A stretch of DNA of 64,000 bases from Nitrospirota bacterium (GCA_963699545.1 CAVOUE010000003.1:224001-288000); one strand, 5' to 3'; positions 8,879-57,840 are shown, counted from the first letter of the stretch. Numbers and translations: made by a program. Notes: generated from the letters alone by a model not told the origin.

Positions 8879-11800
8879 CTATGCCTTCTCGATGTTGACG
8901 AGGAAGGACTTGAACTCCGGTGTCTGCACGTTGGCATCGCCCACGTACGGGGTCAGGGTGTTGGCGATGTAGCCGTTCTTGGCGATGCCTTTAAAGCCCC
9001 AGTGGATCGGGATGCCCACGTGATGCACGGTCTTGCCGTTCACCTGAAGCGGTATGATGCGCTTGGTCACCAACGCCTTCGCCTTGATGAAGCCACGTTT
9101 GGACCACACCTTGACCCAATCGCCGGCCTTGATGCCCTTTTCTTTGGCCAGCTCCTCGCCGATCTCCACGAACTGCTCGGGCTGCATGATGGACGACAGG
9201 TTTGTGTGCTTGGTCCAGAAGTGGAAGTGCTCGGTCAGGCGGTACGTGGTAGCCGCATAGGGGAAATCCTTGCTCTTGCCGAAGGCCTCCATGTTCCCCT
9301 TGAACACCCGCGCAGCCGGATTGCTGACCACTTTGGGATGGAGCGGATTGGTGTCGATCGGCGTCTCGAACGGCTCGTAGTGCTCGGGGAACGGCCCTTC
9401 CGCCATCTTGTCCACGGCGAACAGCCGCGCCACGCCTTCGGGATTCATGATGAACGGGTTCATGGGATCGCCGGGTGGCACGTCGGGCTTGAAGTCGGGA
9501 ATGTCCACCCCGGCCCATTTGCTGCCGTCCCAGCCGATGAGCTTGCGCTTCGGGTCCCACGGTTTTCCGGACGGGTCATTAGAAGCGCGGTTGTACAGAA
9601 CGCGCCGGTTGGCGGGCCAGGCGAACGCCCAGTTAAGCGTGTTGCCGAGGCCGGATGGATCGGAATTGTCCCGTCGCGCCATCAGGTTGCCCTTCTCCGT
9701 CCATGAACCGGAATAGATCCAACAGCCGCAGCTGGTGGAGCCGTCGTCCTGGAGCTGGGCAAAGCCATCCAGCTGCTGGCCTTTTTTCGGCATAACCTTT
9801 GTCTTGTCTTTGGGATCGACGAGGTCGGCCAGGGCTTTGCCGCTAAACTCCATTGCCAATTCCTCAGGAGTCGGCGAAAGCGGGATCTTATGGTTCCAGG
9901 TAATGTTCAGGATCGGATCAGGGAACACGCCCCCCTCTTTTTTGTAGAGCTCGCGCAGCTTAAGGAAGATGCCGGCAATGATATCCGCATCGGGCTTGGC
10001 TTCACCAGGCGGATTGGCGCCCTTGTAATGCCATTGCAGCCATCGGCCGCTGTTGGTGAGCGACCCATTCTCCTCGGCGAAACAGGTGGAAGGAAGACGG
10101 AAGACTTCGGTCTGGATCTTTGCGGGGTCCACGTCGTTGAGGTCTCCGTGGTTCTCCCAGAAGCACGAGGTTTCCGTGGCCAGCGGGTCGATCACGACCA
10201 TATATTTGAGCTTGGCCAGGGCACCGCCGATCTTGGCCTTGTTGGGGAAGGCGGCGAGCGGGTTGAAGCCCTGGCAGAAGTAGCCGTTCAGCTTGCCCTG
10301 ATGCATCAGCTCGAATGTCTGGAGCACGTCGTATACCTTGTCCAGCTTGGGCAGCCAGTCGAAGCACCAGTCATTCTTCTTCGTTGCGGCATCGCCGAAC
10401 CAGGCCTTCATCAGGCTGACGTGGAACTTGCCGTAGTTCTGCCAATAGGACATCTGGCCCGGCCGCAGGGGCTTCAAGGCCCGCTTGCTGATGTAGGCCT
10501 GGTAGTCCGTTTCCTTTTCACCGGGCAGAGTCATATACCCGGGCAGGAGGTTCGACAGGAGGCCCAGGTCGGTAAGGCCCTGGATATTGGAGTGGCCACG
10601 CAGGGCATTCATGCCGCCGCCTGACATGCCGATATTGCCGAGCAGAAGCTGCATCATGGCCGCAGTGCGGATCATCTGCGATCCCACCGAGTGCTGGGTC
10701 CAGCCCAGGGCGTACATGATGGTAAGCGTCCTGTCCGGCACGGACGTGGTGGCGATATTCTCGCACACCTTGATGAAGGTATCCTTGGGCGTGCCGCAGA
10801 TATTGCTCACCGCCTCCGGCGTGTACCGGGCATAGTGTTTCATGAGCAACTGGAACACGCATCGGTGATGTTTCAGTGTGGGATCCACCTTGGCAAAGCC
10901 GTCCTGCCCCATCTCGTACATCCAACTTGCCTTGTCGTATGAACGCTTGTCAGGGAGGTATCCGGAGAACAGTCCGTCATCGAAATTGAAATCCTCGCGC
11001 ACGATGAAGCTTGCGTCTGTGTAAGCCTTGACGTATTCGTGCTGGATCTTGTCGTGCGTGAGAAGGTAGTTGACCAACCCGCCCAGAAAAGCGATGTCCG
11101 TGCCTGCTCGGAGCGGGGCATAGAGGTCCGCCACCGCTGCCGAACGGGTGAAGCGTGGGTCCACCACAATGAACGTGGCCTTATTGTGGGCCTTGGCCTC
11201 GGTCACCCATTTAAATCCGCAGGGGTGGGCCTCGGCGGCGTTTCCGCCCATGACGAGAATGACGTTCGCGTTCTTGATGTCAACCCAGTGGTTGGTCATC
11301 GCGCCGCGGCCGAACGTGGGGGCCAGACTGGCCACCGTGGGTCCGTGTCAGACCCGCGCCTGATTGTCGAATGCGAGGATGCCGGTGCTGCGTACCGCCT
11401 TGTGGGTGATGTAGCCGGTTTCGTTGCTGGAAGCCGAGGCCGCAAGGAATCCAGTGGTCAGCCAGCGGTTGACCGAGGCGCCCTCCGCGTTCTTTTCGAT
11501 GAAGTTCTTGTCCCGGTCGTCCTTCATCAGGCGGGCAATCTTGCTGAAGACCTCGTCCCAGGAAATGCGCTTCCATTCATTCGTTCCGGGGGCGCGGTAC
11601 TCCGGATACTTGAGCCGGTTCGGGCTGTGAATGAAGTCCACCAGGGAGGCGCCTTTGGGGCAGAGTGTGCCGCGGTTCACCGGATGGTCCGGGTCGCCCT
11701 CGATGTGGAAGATGGACGATTCGGCGTTTTTCGCCTTGTCCCCCAGGCTGTGCATGATCACACCACAGCTCACCGAGCAGTAAGGGCAGGTGTTGCGGGT

Positions 11801-15942: not shown

Positions 15943-16010
15943 GAGAACTTCCTCTGTTTTTTCAATAATGGTAACAGACCAGTATGACTGGAAAATCGAG
16001 GGAGGTGTGT

Positions 16011-16685
16011 ATGAGTAACAAAGCCGCAAGAAATCTCTTTATCATCGGCAGTCTCTTCTTCTTCGTGATCTTTCTTGCCCTCACGTTTGACACCATGGGG
16101 AAACTGGACAAGAGGGCCCCGGAGATCACTGAAGAAGTGAATGCCGGCAAGATGGTCTGGCACAAGTATGACTGCATCGGTTGCCATACCATTTTCGGGA
16201 ATGGTTCATATTTCGCGCCCGACCTGACAAAGACCGTCGAGAAGAAACCAAAGGGATACCTGAAGCAGTTCCTGATGGATCCAAAGGCCGTCAACCCGAA
16301 GGCGGCGATGCCGAAATTCGGGATCACGTCAGAGGAAGCCGATCAACCTGATCGCTTTTCTTGACTGGACCTCAAAGGTGGACACGAACGGCTGGCCGCC
16401 AAAGCCGATCCTCGCCACCGCAGCAGGTGTGGGCGGGAAGGAACTTTCCGCGGGACAAAAGATATATCAGTCACAGGGGTGCTCAGGCTGCCACATGATC
16501 AACGGCATCGGCGGTACCACCGGCCCTGACCTCGCCGGAGTCGGGAGCAGACATGACAGGAAGTGGCTCCGTGAACATTTTAAGGACCCCAAAAAAGTGG
16601 TGACCAACTCCGCTATGCCGGGGTATAAACATCTGGGCGATCAGGCATTGGACACTTGACCGAATACATGCTTACCCTTAAATGA
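16011..16685 (+). CDS. norC: Nitric oxide reductase cytochrome c subunit, two heme-c motifs; frameshifts near 16344 and 16655
   Basis: ARNLFIIGS TM anchor, GKMVWHKYDCIGCHTIFGNGSYFAPDLT, DTNGWPP, then second CSGCH...GPDL...MP domain. Confidence 0.85.
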
Positions 16686-16688
16686 ATG

Positions 16689-16785
16689 GCGAGCGTATTG
16701 CCCCGCAGCTTACTGCTGGGCAAGCGAGCGTATGTGGAAACAATTCCTTGCATTAAGATTCCTGTAGCTTGCTGCAGGAAATCTT
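16689..16785. repeat. Two related intergenic hairpins between norC and norB
   Basis: TTGCCCCGCAG-CTTA-CTGCTGGGCAA flanked by direct repeats GCGAGCGTAT; AAGATTCCTGTAGC-TT-GCTGCAGGAAATCTT. Confidence 0.6.
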
Positions 16786-16803
16786 CAATAGGAGGTTGGA
16801 GAA

Positions 16804-18199
16804 ATGAGTATACAATATGAAAGCCAAAAGATAGCGCAGTATTTTTACACCTTTGCTGTGCTCCTCTTCCTGGTCCAGGTGCTGGTCGGCATCATCGCGG
16901 CCATCCAGTTCATCAGGCCCGATTTCTTCATCCTGAACTTCAACATCATCAGGACGCTCCACATCAACGCCCTCGTGGTCTGGCTGCTCGTCGGGCTCAT
17001 GGGCGCGACCTACTATGTGGTCCCTGAGGAATCGGAGACCGAGTTGTGGAGCCTTCCCCTTGCAAAGTTCCAGTTCTGGGCAACGGTCGTTACCATCACG
17101 CTCGTCGTCCTCGGTTACATCTGGATGGGCATCAATCCCGCAGGCGAACAGACCGTGTGCTGGGCATTAACCCCCTGAATGAAGGCCGGGAATATATCGA
17201 GGCCCCGCGCTGGGCAGATATCCTCATCGTGGTCTCGGTGCTCCTGTTCCTCTTCAACATGTTCATGACCATGATGAAGACAAAGAAGTGGACCGGCATC
17301 CAGGGCGTGCTCCTCGGCGGTCTCGTGTTCCTGGCGCTCATGTATCTGCCGGGCATGTTCTACACAAAGAGCATGGTAAAGGACCAGTTCTGGTGGTGGT
17401 GGGTGGTCCATCTCTGGGTCGAAGGCTCCTGGGAGATCATCGCCGGCGCGCTCCTTGCCTTCATGCTGATGAAGACCATCGGCGCAAAGCGGGAAGTGCT
17501 TGAGAAGTGGATGTACATCGAGGTCGGCCTCGTCCTCTTCACCGGCATCCTCGGCACAGGCCATCACTACTACTGGATCGGGACACCCAAGTACTGGCTC
17601 TGGGTCGGCGGCATTCTTCAGTTCACTTGAACCCGTCCCGCTGCTCCTCATGGTCTGGGACGCCTTCAGGACCACACGGGAGGCAAGGAACGTGACGAAC
17701 AAGCCGGGACTTTTCTACACCGTGGCCCATGCGATCTTCAACTTTGTCGGCGCGGGGTTCTGGGGCATCATCCATACCCTGCCCCAGGTGAATCAATGGA
17801 CCCACGGCACGCAGATCACCACGGCCCACGGCCATCTCGCATTCTACGGCGCCTATGTCCTGCTTGTGATCTCCATGATCTACGTGACACTGCCGGCGAT
17901 CCGAGGCGTGAAGGAGTACAATCCCGTCAAGGGCGTATCTGTCGTTCTGGTGGATGACCATCTCCATGGTCTTCATCGTCCTGACCATCACCGGCGCAGG
18001 CATGGTCCAGGTCTATATGGAAAGGCTCATGGGGCTTGACTACGTAGCGGTGAAGACGACCTACAACCTCTGGTTCTGGATATTGAGGGCGATCTTCGGC
18101 GTGGGCTTCCTCATCGGTGTCGGGATCTTTGTCGTGGATTTCTTCAAGCTGGGCAAAGAGCCGATGCCTGTGGCGAGCGTAGCGCCCGAAAAAGCGTAA
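16804..18199 (+). CDS. norB: Nitric oxide reductase catalytic subunit (cNOR); frameshifts near 17157, 17615, 17925
   Basis: RTLHIN, EGREYIE, WWVVHLWVEGSWE, GTGHHYYWIG, SSLEPVP, HTLPQVNQWTHGTQITTAHGHLAFYG across four partial ORFs. Confidence 0.92.
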
Positions 18200-18220
18200 C
18201 TTGGACAATTCATAAATTCG

Positions 18221-18377
18221 GGGAGAGGTGTCCGGCTTGAAGGGCAAGACTTCGGGTTATGTGCCGGTCCGCAAGAGCGGACCGTGACAATACATGGGAA
18301 CAGACTGCTCTTAGGTGCACAGACCTTGGCATAGTCGAGAAGGGCTATTGTCTTGCCGAGAGACGGATACCTCTCCC
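18221..18377 (+). ncRNA. Candidate structured ncRNA or non-autonomous element, copy 1
   Basis: Nested stems GGGAGAGGTGTCCG/CGGATACCTCTCCC, GGCAAGAC/GTCTTGCC, TGTGCC/GGCATA and hairpin GGTCCGC-AAGA-GCGGACC; diverged second copy near 56.3 kb. Strand is assumed. Confidence 0.55.
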
Positions 18378-18414
18378 GGGAAAAAGAGACTCGTGAATAG
18401 TATATAATGTTGCC

Positions 18415-43476: not shown

Positions 43477-44234
43477 GGGGACACATCCCATTTTATTATG
43501 CTTATTTGTCATCGCTGTTTCTTTCTCGGCCGTCCAATAGGCAAGGCAGCAAGCCTTTTCCCGAGATTGCGCTCGATTTCCTTTACAAAGTTGTCTGTTC
43601 CTAACGGTCGGCCTGTTCTTGCGCTCTGCCGGATGTCTTTCATCTCCTCTACAGGAATGCTTGTTTTTATGAATTCAATATAATCGCTCCGTTGAATTTC
43701 AGGAAACAGCTCTTCTCCCAAGAGAGGATCCTGAACAAGGCCAAAATGTGCACGGGCGCTGGAATATGGATAATCCTCGGAGTTATCAACGACCGTTGCA
43801 CGGACTGGATTTTGTTCTATATAGCGGGCAACAGCCCAGAGATAAGCTTCCTGATCTACAACACATGAGTGATATCTGCTTTCCCAGAGCCGCCCCGTAC
43901 GCCGATACTTCCTGTTTATATGCTGGGCATAGCAGAGGGTTAACCCCTGCATCATTTTCTGAAGGGACACCTCCGAAGAGGGTTTTGCAAGGAGATGTAC
44001 ATGATTGGTCATGAGGCAATAGCAGATGATAGAAGTATCCCATTTTTCTGCATATCTCTTCACCAGGTAAAGGTACACAGCCCTGTCTTCCGAAGTAAAA
44101 AATACATCCCCTCGATTGTTGCCTCTCTGAACAATGTGATGTGGGAATCCCGCTGCAACAGCCCTCGCTATTCTCGGCATATGGAAAGTCTACATGAGAA
44201 AACTACCGGCGTCAAGAAAAATGGGATGTGTCCC
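43477..44234 (-). mobile_element. RAYT-like (IS200/Y1) element bounded by 17-bp inverted REP-like repeats
   Basis: GGGACACATCCCATTTT (43478-43494) and AAAATGGGATGTGTCCC (44218-44234) flank the transposase. Confidence 0.85.
43509..44180 (-). CDS. REP-associated tyrosine transposase (Y1 HUH)
   Basis: MPRIAR...HHIVQRGNNR, YCLMTNHVHLL (HUH), GRLWESRY, YIEQNPVRA, YPYSS. Confidence 0.92.
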   Translation of the reverse strand: MPRIARAVAAGFPHHIVQRGNNRGDVFFTSEDRAVYLYLVKRYAEKWDTSIICYCLMTNHVHLLAKPSSEVSLQKMMQGLTLCYAQHINRKYRRTGRLWESRYHSCVVDQEAYLWAVARYIEQNPVRATVVDNSEDYPYSSARAHFGLVQDPLLGEELFPEIQRSDYIEFIKTSIPVEEMKDIRQSARTGRPLGTDNFVKEIERNLGKRLAALPIGRPRKKQR

Positions 44235-55532: not shown

Positions 55533-56201
55533 ATGAAACTCATACTTTTTGACATCGACGGGACATTGATGGATTCGGGAGGGGCGGGAACGAAGTCCAT
55601 GAACCTCGCCTTCGAGGAACTCTTCTCTGTCCGGGACGGGTTCAAAGGCATTAACATGGCGGGGAAGACCGACACCCAGATCATGAAAGAGGGCCTCAGA
55701 AAATACGGCTTGAATGGAGAGAACGGGAATGTCGGTCTCTTCTCTGACCGGTACATCAGCCACCTCAGGAGAGAGATCGAGACCCCGGGGAAACATCTGA
55801 AGCCCCGGATCAGGGAGTCCCTGGAGCTCCTGAGCAGCATGGACGATATCTTTCTCGGTCTCCTCACCGGAAACATAGAGGCGGGGGCACGGATAAAGCT
55901 CGGCGCATTCGGCCTCAACAGCTATTTCCCCTTTGGCGCGTTCGGCAATGACGATGAGGACAGGAACAAGCTCCTTCCTGTCGCTGCAGCGAGGTTCCGG
56001 GAGCTCCATAGGCAACATGTGGAATACAGGGACTGCATCGTTATCGGGGACACCCCAAGGGATGTGGAGTGCGCGAAGATCTATGGAGCATACGCCGTTG
56101 CTGTCGCCACGGGGCCCTACCGCTATGATTCCCTTGTCGCGTCGGGGGCGGACCTGGTGCTGAAGGATATGTCGGAGATGGACTGCTCCCTCATCCTCTA
56201 G
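55533..56201 (+). CDS. HAD-family hydrolase
   Basis: LFDIDGTL, GLLTGN, IGDTPRD. Confidence 0.9.
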   Translation: MKLILFDIDGTLMDSGGAGTKSMNLAFEELFSVRDGFKGINMAGKTDTQIMKEGLRKYGLNGENGNVGLFSDRYISHLRREIETPGKHLKPRIRESLELLSSMDDIFLGLLTGNIEAGARIKLGAFGLNSYFPFGAFGNDDEDRNKLLPVAAARFRELHRQHVEYRDCIVIGDTPRDVECAKIYGAYAVAVATGPYRYDSLVASGADLVLKDMSEMDCSLIL

Positions 56202-56262
56202 CCTGATTATTCAGGAAGAGCAAGGTCATTGGAGTCTCACCCGTCCGAGTCATGATACGTAC

Positions 56263-56365
56263 CCCTTCTCTGCTGTGCCGTCGTCCATACACCTAAAAGA
56301 CTCTGTCCCAATGATCGCTGTTGTCCGCTCTTGCGGACCGGCACACAACCCGACGTCTTGCCCTT
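56263..56365 (-). ncRNA. Diverged copy 2 (body) of the 18.2-kb structured element
   Basis: 41 of 43 nt identical to 18240-18282, then shared blocks GGGA-CAGA, TTAGGTG, GGCA-AG, GAGAAGGG. Confidence 0.6.
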
Positions 56366-56371
56366 TTGAAT

Positions 56372-56575
56372 AAAATGGGGACACATCCCATTTTCCTTTA
56401 TCTCCTTCGCCGTATCTATCTTCAGCCACCTGGCCTCAGGGGGGTTCTATAGTCTTATTAAGGAATGTGCTTCAAAGTTAACTTCTTTTTTCGGCTTAAC
56501 CCAAAACAGGGCAAGCGCAAGCCTTCGCACCTCAGTTGTTTAACTCCTGAAAATGGGATGTGTCCCTATTTTATT
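56372..56575. mobile_element. Non-autonomous REPIN/MITE-like element with the RAYT terminal repeats
   Basis: GGGACACATCCCATTTT (56378-56394) and AAAATGGGATGTGTCCC (56550-56566), identical to the 43.5/44.2 kb repeats; no transposase between. Confidence 0.8.
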
Positions 56576-56608
56576 CTATTGTCTTGCCGGGAGACGGACA
56601 CTTCCCCC
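56576..56608 (+). repeat. Detached 3' arm of the structured element
   Basis: CTATTGTCTTGCCGGGAGACGGACACTTCCCCC versus copy 1 CTATTGTCTTGCCGAGAGACGGATACCTCTCCC. Confidence 0.7.
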
Positions 56609-56625
56609 ACCCATAAGCAGGACAG

Positions 56626-57840
<1,215 letters not shown>

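Follow-up and report, generated by a model that had tools for sequence, protein, structure and literature searches.

The element at positions 18200-18400 of the window (the whole stretch of 64,000 nucleotides analysed, C3:224001-288000 of genome G000) is very probably, to judge from its sequence, a MITE, that is, a non-coding, non-autonomous repeat of ~205-220 bp mobilised by a transposase of the IS1380 family. Several features point to this class: the element is short and non-coding, it has terminal inverted repeats and a target duplication, its copies are dispersed and are present or absent at given sites, and its ends are shared with autonomous insertion sequences (IS). The same features bear out the proposal, made in a preliminary description of this DNA, of a non-autonomous mobile element that carries no recombinase. 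The accompanying idea that the element is an orphan bridge RNA was a false lead and is removed here. The repeat family is a previously unnamed one of uncultured Thermodesulfovibrionales (Nitrospirota), very probably of the IS1380-mobilised MITE kind; among the titles and abstract openings listed in a search of literature outside subscription journals, none described a MITE of Thermodesulfovibrio or Nitrospirota. In this family one sees a prokaryotic transposon system, related to piggyBac, that has YTAR as its target. The one feature of it that merits specialist attention is the stronger conservation of the core than of the ends.

By analogy with the known behaviour of IS1380 and piggyBac elements, a DDE transposase of the IS1380 family, acting in trans, would recognise both ends of the MITE, cut the element out and paste it into a YTAR site, which would be duplicated on both sides. 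The long stem would be an extended inverted repeat, and the conserved core of ~150 nt would be cargo. The copies in the window are most likely immobile relics, because the G000 assembly has no IS1380 transposase, the right tip of copy 1 is missing and copy 2 is in pieces.

Copy 1 and its surroundings

Copy 1 occupies 18200-18400 on the plus strand, its extent being set by the span (query positions 5-201) over which BLAST and nhmmer align it with other copies. The tetranucleotide GTAA stands at the YTAR target-site position at its left edge (18196-18199, plus strand), and the TAA within it (18197-18199) is the stop codon of the upstream heme-copper oxidase (norB-like) gene, whose reading frame ends at 18199. 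The left terminal inverted repeat, CTTGGACAATTCATAAATTC (18200-18219, plus strand), is conserved in the copies and matches the termini of IS1380-family IS, CCCAGATAATTCATAAAT. Inward from it, on the same strand, lie the 5' arm of the outer stem (18221-18233), which pairs in the MFE structure with the 3' arm (18365-18377); GGCAAGAC (18243-18250), the partner of GTCTTGCC (18350-18357), which belongs to the best-conserved block GGGCTATTGTCTTGCC; and the hairpin GGTCCGC-AAGA-GCGGACC (18266-18283), which is seen in the fold and in the pairing counts over copies. An internal segment, GACAATACATGG (18286-18297, plus strand), resembles the left tip at the level of the consensus (CCTTGACAATACAT versus CCTTGATAATTCAT). 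The right subterminal part, GGAAAAAGAGACTCGTGAATAG (18378-18400, plus strand), lacks the terminal ...AATGGG and YTAR when it is aligned to other copies and to the empty sites. On the plus strand within 18200-18400 there is no open reading frame of at least 50 aa.

The right terminus of copy 1 is ~8-10 nt shorter than the family consensus, as judged by alignment to other copies and to the corresponding sites of G010 and G011. We place the end of the copy at ~18400 because the similarity of these two genomes to G000 resumes at AGTATATAATG (18399 onward). With GTAA at the left and no recognisable tip at the right, the target duplication of this particular copy is not visible.

The norB-like gene upstream (15984-18199, plus strand) reads in pieces: after two cytochrome-c-like reading frames come three COX1 (PF00115) segments, each in a different frame (16804-17178, 17046-17630 and 17500-18039), and finally 17954-18199. 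Either the gene is a frameshifted pseudogene or indel errors in the assembly have broken it up, and in the latter case individual bases of the element could be unreliable as well. Further upstream in the window, a SECIS_3 selenocysteine insertion element was found at 11295-11353 on the minus strand (81.4 bits, gathering score 63), and a selenoprotein gene is therefore expected there.

Copies and distribution

The preliminary description spoke of an orphan in two copies, a picture that the genome does not sustain. G000 has three full copies, namely window 18200-18400, C3:388362-388555 (minus strand) and C12:120887-121077 (minus strand), together with a rearranged remnant (copy 2) and an internally deleted mini copy (C10:156380-156445). 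Between located termini the copies of the family measure 201-243 bp, and they differ from one another by single-base indels. Alignment of the G000 copies shows GACAATTCAT conserved in all three full copies, and the right-hand ...CTCGTGAATA is conserved too.

Relatives hold many more. Matches were found in 9 of the 19 genomes of the family, G000 included, with 21 in G004, 14 in G012, 9 in G002, 8 in G008 and 5 in G005, while two genomes of the same genus as G000 (G010 and G011) had none. Across the order Thermodesulfovibrionales, 8 of 317 genomes had a match at E<=1e-6 (6 of 18 in family f1, G000 not counted, and 1 of 54 in f13). A pattern of two core blocks retrieved 73 metagenome stretches. 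The contigs with matches are from Thermodesulfovibrionales or Nitrospirae MAGs. Pattern matches in a Bdellovibrionales and a Bacilli record were set aside as chance, there being no profile match in either; so was one at G005:C124:224, which falls inside a coding gene. Solo matches to the left end beside housekeeping genes (G004:C16 and G005:C24), with no transposase nearby, are remnants or chance. The neighbours of the copies are varied housekeeping genes, and one of the 80 reading frames that flank 42 copies is IS200-like.

Ends and target sites

The consensus of the family ends is (YTAR)CCyTGATAATTCATAAA ... ATGAATAnAATGGG(YTAR) or, more fully, (YTAR)CC(C/T)nGATAATTCATAAA(C/T)TC ... CTCATGAATAnAATGGG(YTAR), based on alignments of 42 copies with their flanks and on end-anchored location in 67 of the 111 pattern-positive copies. 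Flanking 4-mers were counted at 57 loci, after ten rows that repeat a locus had been dropped (L181, L199, L201, L206, L207, L194, L231, L232, L208 and L224). They are identical and palindromic (CTAG) at 7 loci; identical, non-palindromic and in direct orientation (CTAA, TTAG, ATAG) at 5; inverted at 1; and different by one mismatch at 15. The remaining 29 show two or more mismatches, which indicates decayed or mislocated ends. Direct 4-mers are more frequent than inverted ones (5 versus 1), as a target duplication predicts. Many of the flanking 4-mers have decayed, and we therefore regard most copies as old. The 29 of 57 located copies that lack matching 4-mers do nonetheless count against a MITE, as does copy 1 with its GTAA at the left and no right tip.

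The YTAR targets are mostly CTAG, CTAA and TTAG. Because YTAR includes TAA or TAG, many copies coincide exactly with a stop codon, among them copy 1 between the norB-like gene and the next gene. Gene 3' ends are abutted in both orientations: in 19 cases the upstream gene is co-oriented and ends within 60 nt, and in 19 the downstream gene is convergent. These counts, which come from crude gene calls that miscalled the frameshifted norB-like gene, fit insertion in random orientation at targets that contain stop codons.

Insertion footprints

Comparison of orthologous sites shows the element present in some genomes and absent from others. Behind the norB-like gene, where the preliminary description had suggested that empty sites might be found, G010 and G011 do lack the element; from the oxidase stop codon up to the common AGTATATAATG they carry unrelated sequence. 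At the parA-parS site, 5 nt in G011 correspond to 264 nt in G000, and the C12 site of G000 differs from both same-genus relatives. Internally deleted minis that keep both tips occur in G000 (C10:156380-156445), G004, G012 and G005, and one orthologous site carries a full copy in G004 and a mini without the core in G005.

Long-hairpin MITEs are known from other bacteria, among them Correia/NEMIS (Neisseria), ERIC (enterobacteria), RUP and Nezha. Like the present MITE, these are small, non-coding, multi-copy elements with inverted-repeat ends and a short target duplication; they are intergenic, often at gene ends, and the whole element can fold as a hairpin. The present MITE differs from them in its IS1380 parent, its host order, a core more conserved than the ends and modular extra hairpins. 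Its intergenic position at gene ends, and a long stem that is kept complementary by several compensatory variants within one genome, might also be expected of a REP- or ERIC-like palindrome maintained between genes by the host and spread by recombination or gene conversion. Such a palindrome would not be expected to have defined termini identical to the ends of autonomous IS with tetranucleotide repeats beside them, and the patchy spread (none in two genomes of the same genus, up to 21 matches in one of another genus) and the insertion-type polymorphism at orthologous sites make this explanation very improbable.

Two minor observations concern these sites. The copy at C3:388k (L022; C3:388300-388340) has the start of a ParA/Soj-like gene on one side and a perfect parS-like palindrome, TGTTCCACGTGGAACA, on the other, and the flanks just outside it are inverted repeats themselves (GCATAGTGC and GCACTTTGC). 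Behind the norB-like gene, G010 and G011 (L042 and L045) have C-run/G-run palindromes, ATCCCCCC...GGGGGGAT, which may be another type of repeat.

Autonomous relatives of the IS1380 family

The IS1380 family is defined in ISfinder by CC ends and target duplications of 4-5 bp. The MITE and the full-length IS of its host order share a terminal CC(C)AGATAATTCATAAA at both ends and a 4-bp YTAR duplication; they differ in that the MITE has no transposase gene, is ~205-220 bp long as against ~1650 bp, and has an unrelated interior. A parent of the IS5 family, which had been guessed from the YTAR target, was rejected: PF01609 had no match in G000 or G004, and one candidate proved to belong to the IS1380 family. 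The search with DDE_Tnp_1 led to this IS, in G005, which has 22-nt inverted repeats, TTAA/CCC...GGG/TTAA ends and a 460-aa transposase that scores 195.9 bits against NF033539 (IS1380, NCBIfam; cut-off 180). Matches to NF033539 were found in 11 of the 19 family genomes, 4 of them above the cut-off. The best, at 341.7 bits, is in G003, a genome of the same family, where the transposase lies 275 nt from CTAA/CCCACATAATTCATAAATTT, which is the MITE terminus.

Transposases related to that of G003 were identified in 17 of the order's 317 genomes. Where both ends of the IS are in the locus (14 copies), both termini read CCCA(G/C)(A/T)TAATTCATAAA. The flanking 4-mers of these IS were read by eye, leaving out L152 (two adjacent termini) and L154 (a 49%-identical relative with unclear flanks). 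Eight are direct and non-palindromic, with CTAA, TTAG or CTAC (L146, L148, L149 with CTAC, L150, L153, L162, L163 and L168), two are palindromic (L147 and L164), three have one mismatch (L151, L155 and L167) and one is inverted (L170). The IS at L146 is 1651 bp long; its 22-nt inverted repeats show 91% complementarity, and its transposase, of 448 aa, scores 409.4 bits against the same cut-off of 180. Membership of the putative parents in the IS1380 family is thus indicated by scores in three places (L146, G003 and G005); the MITE itself encodes no transposase.

Two findings speak against an IS1380-mobilised MITE. Neither G000 (completeness 87%) nor G004, which has more matches to the element than any other genome, yielded an IS1380 transposase in the search with NF033539. 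MAGs often lose repeated IS. Furthermore, no full-length IS with these termini was found to have an interior that matches the MITE core: the MITE profile had no match at E<=1 in any of the IS loci, and only the tips of ~20 nt are common to MITE and IS. The core is therefore not derived from the IS. A 10-mer, AAGACAATAG, that lies 53-60 nt from the end in the MITE and in the IS of G168 and G171 was dismissed as chance; it is absent from other IS lineages.

The ends of piggyBac begin with CCC. Common to piggyBac and the IS1380 system is the duplication of a four-base target centred on TA, as in the G005 copy with TTAA on either side of its CCC...GGG; the IS1380 system differs from piggyBac in that the target is relaxed to YTAR and the host is prokaryotic. 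Published work on the two groups pairs piggyBac with IS1380-like elements as a related transposase superfamily (PMC5718144) and treats IS1380 as the outgroup (PMC10813416). Examples of the IS1380 family are IS1247 and ISPme1, and for IS1247 a duplication of 5 bp and inverted repeats of 16/13 bp are listed (PMC3281130, Table 2).

The full-length IS of the order (for example L146, 2404-2480) also carry an inverted repeat, ATAGCCAAC...GTTGGCTAT, whose end coincides with the start codon of the transposase. In the 5' leader of these IS1380-type elements such a repeat could form a hairpin that controls translation.

Relation to IS110 and bridge RNAs

In the preliminary description the nested stems were read as the layout of an RNA guide, and the element as recombinase-less and possibly RNA-guided, in the manner of IS110/IS1111 bridge RNAs or seekRNAs. 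Such RNAs are, like the MITE, non-coding, ~180-200 nt long, built of stems with internal loops and linked to mobile DNA, and the argument drew on a 9/10 match between the internal segment of copy 1, GACAATACAT, and the sequence GACAATTCAT at the left edge (18204-18213), which was taken to be a flank. It is not a flank: GACAATTCAT lies inside the left terminal inverted repeat, so that both members of the match are conserved parts of the element. The corresponding match claimed for copy 2, TCATTGG, belongs to the 3' arm of the element itself, in reverse complement. Moreover, a link between loop and flank fails when followed across copies, as the variants AATACAT and AAAAAGT of the internal segment do not track the variants of the terminus.

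The distribution of IS110 genes leads to the same result. Matches to PF01548 (IS110 DEDD) are absent from G012 and from G002 (100% complete), which have 14 and 9 matches to the element; G004, with 21, has a single one, and G005 has seven. The two IS110 genes of G000 (C3:426009-426428 and C6:404392-404811) could be cited in favour of a guide RNA, but the nearest copy of the element is ~38 kb away. Adjacency to DEDD_Tnp_IS110 genes, which had been put forward as a check, was found for no copy: no IS110 or IS1380 transposase is encoded among the 80 reading frames that flank 42 copies. The MITE thus differs from the bridge RNAs and seekRNAs in that it does not lie beside a DEDD recombinase, in its inverted-repeat ends and target duplications, and in a loop and supposed flank that are fixed parts. 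Ends and a 4-bp target duplication of this kind are those of IS1380-family DDE elements, and an IS110 or IS1111 origin is extremely improbable. The two IS110-family transposase genes of G000, which have identical scores (55.9 bits) and 367-aa frames, are probably two copies of one IS that is unrelated to the MITE.

Fold and conservation of the core

The nested fold ascribed to the element was recovered for copy 1. The predicted RNA fold of 18200-18400 has an MFE of -84.4 kcal/mol, compared with a mean of -59.4 for shuffled sequences (z -5.73; 0 of 200 shuffles as good), and it includes the outer stem, GGCAAGAC/GTCTTGCC and the hairpin at 18266-18283; copy 2 folds no better than its shuffles (z +0.31). 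When the structure of the preliminary description was counted on 42 copies, 85.2% of cells were paired, as against 40-47% with the partners slid by 1-3 columns. The outer stem, into which the terminal inverted repeats run on, is paired in 90% of cells and has changes on both sides in 10 of its 13 pairs. GGCAAGAC/GTCTTGCC is paired in 87% of cells (both-side changes in 2 of 8 pairs), the inner five pairs of the hairpin (helix 5) in 92% (2 of 5) and its outer two pairs (helix 4) in 81.5% (0 of 2). The pairing TGTGCC/GGCATA, which had been singled out as kept between copies, is weak, with 67% of cells paired and both-side changes in 4 of 6 pairs.

The pairing of the arms is maintained. When all columns were compared with all others, the outer stem alone stood out, and the inner helices showed little or no covariation; one pair of coupled columns (95 and 143), isolated and without neighbouring pairs, reflects subfamilies and was discounted. 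A change in the specificity of the transposase cannot explain the outer-stem variants, because several compensatory ones coexist within G004.

Conservation along the element was measured on the 36 copies found without a pattern filter. A profile on 93 copies is biased, since the metagenome copies were chosen by a pattern that requires two core blocks, and the 36-copy profile is preferred. Mean column identity was 0.77, with a variance of 0.031 compared with a binomial expectation of 0.005. Identity reaches 0.96 in the core block TATTGTCTTG and 0.89 in GTTATGTGCC, whereas it is 0.49-0.82 at the left terminus and 0.61-0.75 at the right. The core (~150 nt, identity 0.85-0.96) is thus better conserved than the termini, which is the reverse of what recognition by a transposase alone would predict and so counts against a plain MITE. 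Subfamilies differ in added hairpins: in subfamily B, GACTC is replaced by the hairpin CCGCC-TGA-GGCGG while the partner GTCTTGCC is unchanged, and in L071 and L076 the following loop holds two more hairpins.

Some of these data would be accounted for by a structured RNA with a function of its own (the product of a small RNA gene, or an mRNA element acting in cis) that travels with the MITE or has been exapted from it. Under selection on the plus strand, one would expect the low folding energy of copy 1, a core conserved above the termini with excess variance in identity, and insertions that take the form of hairpins at loops. Two adjacent consensus wobbles in the outer stem (T.G and G.T) would become A.C mismatches if the opposite strand were read, and RNAalifold on 93 unique copies gave -17.7 kcal/mol for the plus strand and -10.3 for the minus strand. 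That same alignment, however, kept little beyond the outer stem, neither the inner helices nor TGTGCC/GGCATA fit such selection well, and the strand bias is not significant: G.U pairs outnumber A.C pairs (138 versus 55), but outside the three consensus wobble positions the numbers are 69 and 55 (p 0.24). Nor is the element biased in orientation toward the genes that it abuts (19 versus 19), and at the site where G004 keeps the core, G005 has lost it. Scans for promoters and terminators returned none of either in the element. Rfam 15 gave no match at the element in a scan of the whole window at gathering score, and at E<=10 the best match was ftsZ-DE (21 bits where 72.2 are required, E 0.086), with nothing relevant. 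The suggestion of a new ncRNA family gains nothing from covariation, which shows compensatory change in the outer stem only and no significant strand bias. We consider a functional RNA quite unlikely. Causes at the level of DNA, such as the formation of hairpins or cruciforms and repair between the arms, fit the maintained pairing at least as well as selection on an RNA.

Within the interpretation of the element as an IS1380-mobilised MITE, we tentatively keep, at rather low probability, the idea that the core is a selected, foldable module of ~150 nt, acting either in cis as a DNA hairpin or cruciform that joins IS1380/piggyBac-like ends or as a mobile structured RNA. It is kept because the core is more conserved than the ends, compensatory changes seen inside individual genomes preserve the stem, and loops are the only places where additional hairpins occur. 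If it were true, a folded core could be a general property of the IS1380-type transposon family.

Copy 2 and the repeat that interrupts it

The second, diverged copy reported in the preliminary description exists, but as a truncated and rearranged remnant that another repeat interrupts. Over 108 nt (56260-56365, minus strand) it is 78% identical to copy 1, and in the stretch AAGGGCAAGAC...GCGGAC the two are identical at 41 of 43 positions, counted by eye. By alignment and sequence the remnant proper, on the minus strand, comprises the core from GGGCAAGAC to the right terminus ...CCTGAATAATCAGG (56202-56365), with CTAG, a YTAR tetranucleotide, adjoining its right end (56198-56201, minus strand). 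The left terminus is absent, part of the 3' arm is replaced, and unrelated sequence stands in the core in place of CTATTGTCTTGCCGAGA. A fragment of the 3' arm, CTATTGTCTTGCCGGGAGACGG..., lies apart at 56576-56608 on the plus strand, inverted relative to the core (33 nt, 88% identical to query positions 131-163), so that the rearranged remnant as a whole covers 56198-56608.

Between the two pieces is a different repeat of ~207 bp (56369-56575), bounded by inverted AAAATGGGATGTGTCCCyATTTT motifs. Read on the minus strand from the stop codon of tgt, the order is the inverted 3'-arm fragment (56608-56576), the ~207-bp repeat (56575-56369) and the MITE core, which begins with GGGCAAGAC at 56365 and reaches the right tip ...TGAATAATCAGG at 56202, with CTAG after it. 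The motif occurs in 17 copies in G000, several of them as inverted pairs 110-160 nt apart. It is also found at window positions 43493 and 44219 (C3:267493 and C3:268219), and in G012 it abuts a copy of the MITE (L024). This second family may be another small MITE or a palindrome that binds a protein.

In G004, which belongs to a different genus, a MITE copy lies 30 nt behind tgt in the same orientation as copy 2, and the tgt proteins of the two genomes are 75% identical. The copies that adjoin tgt in G000 (56198-56660) and in G004 (L067, 1460-1800) share a GACGGG variant in the 3' arm, and they may represent one ancient insertion inherited by both.
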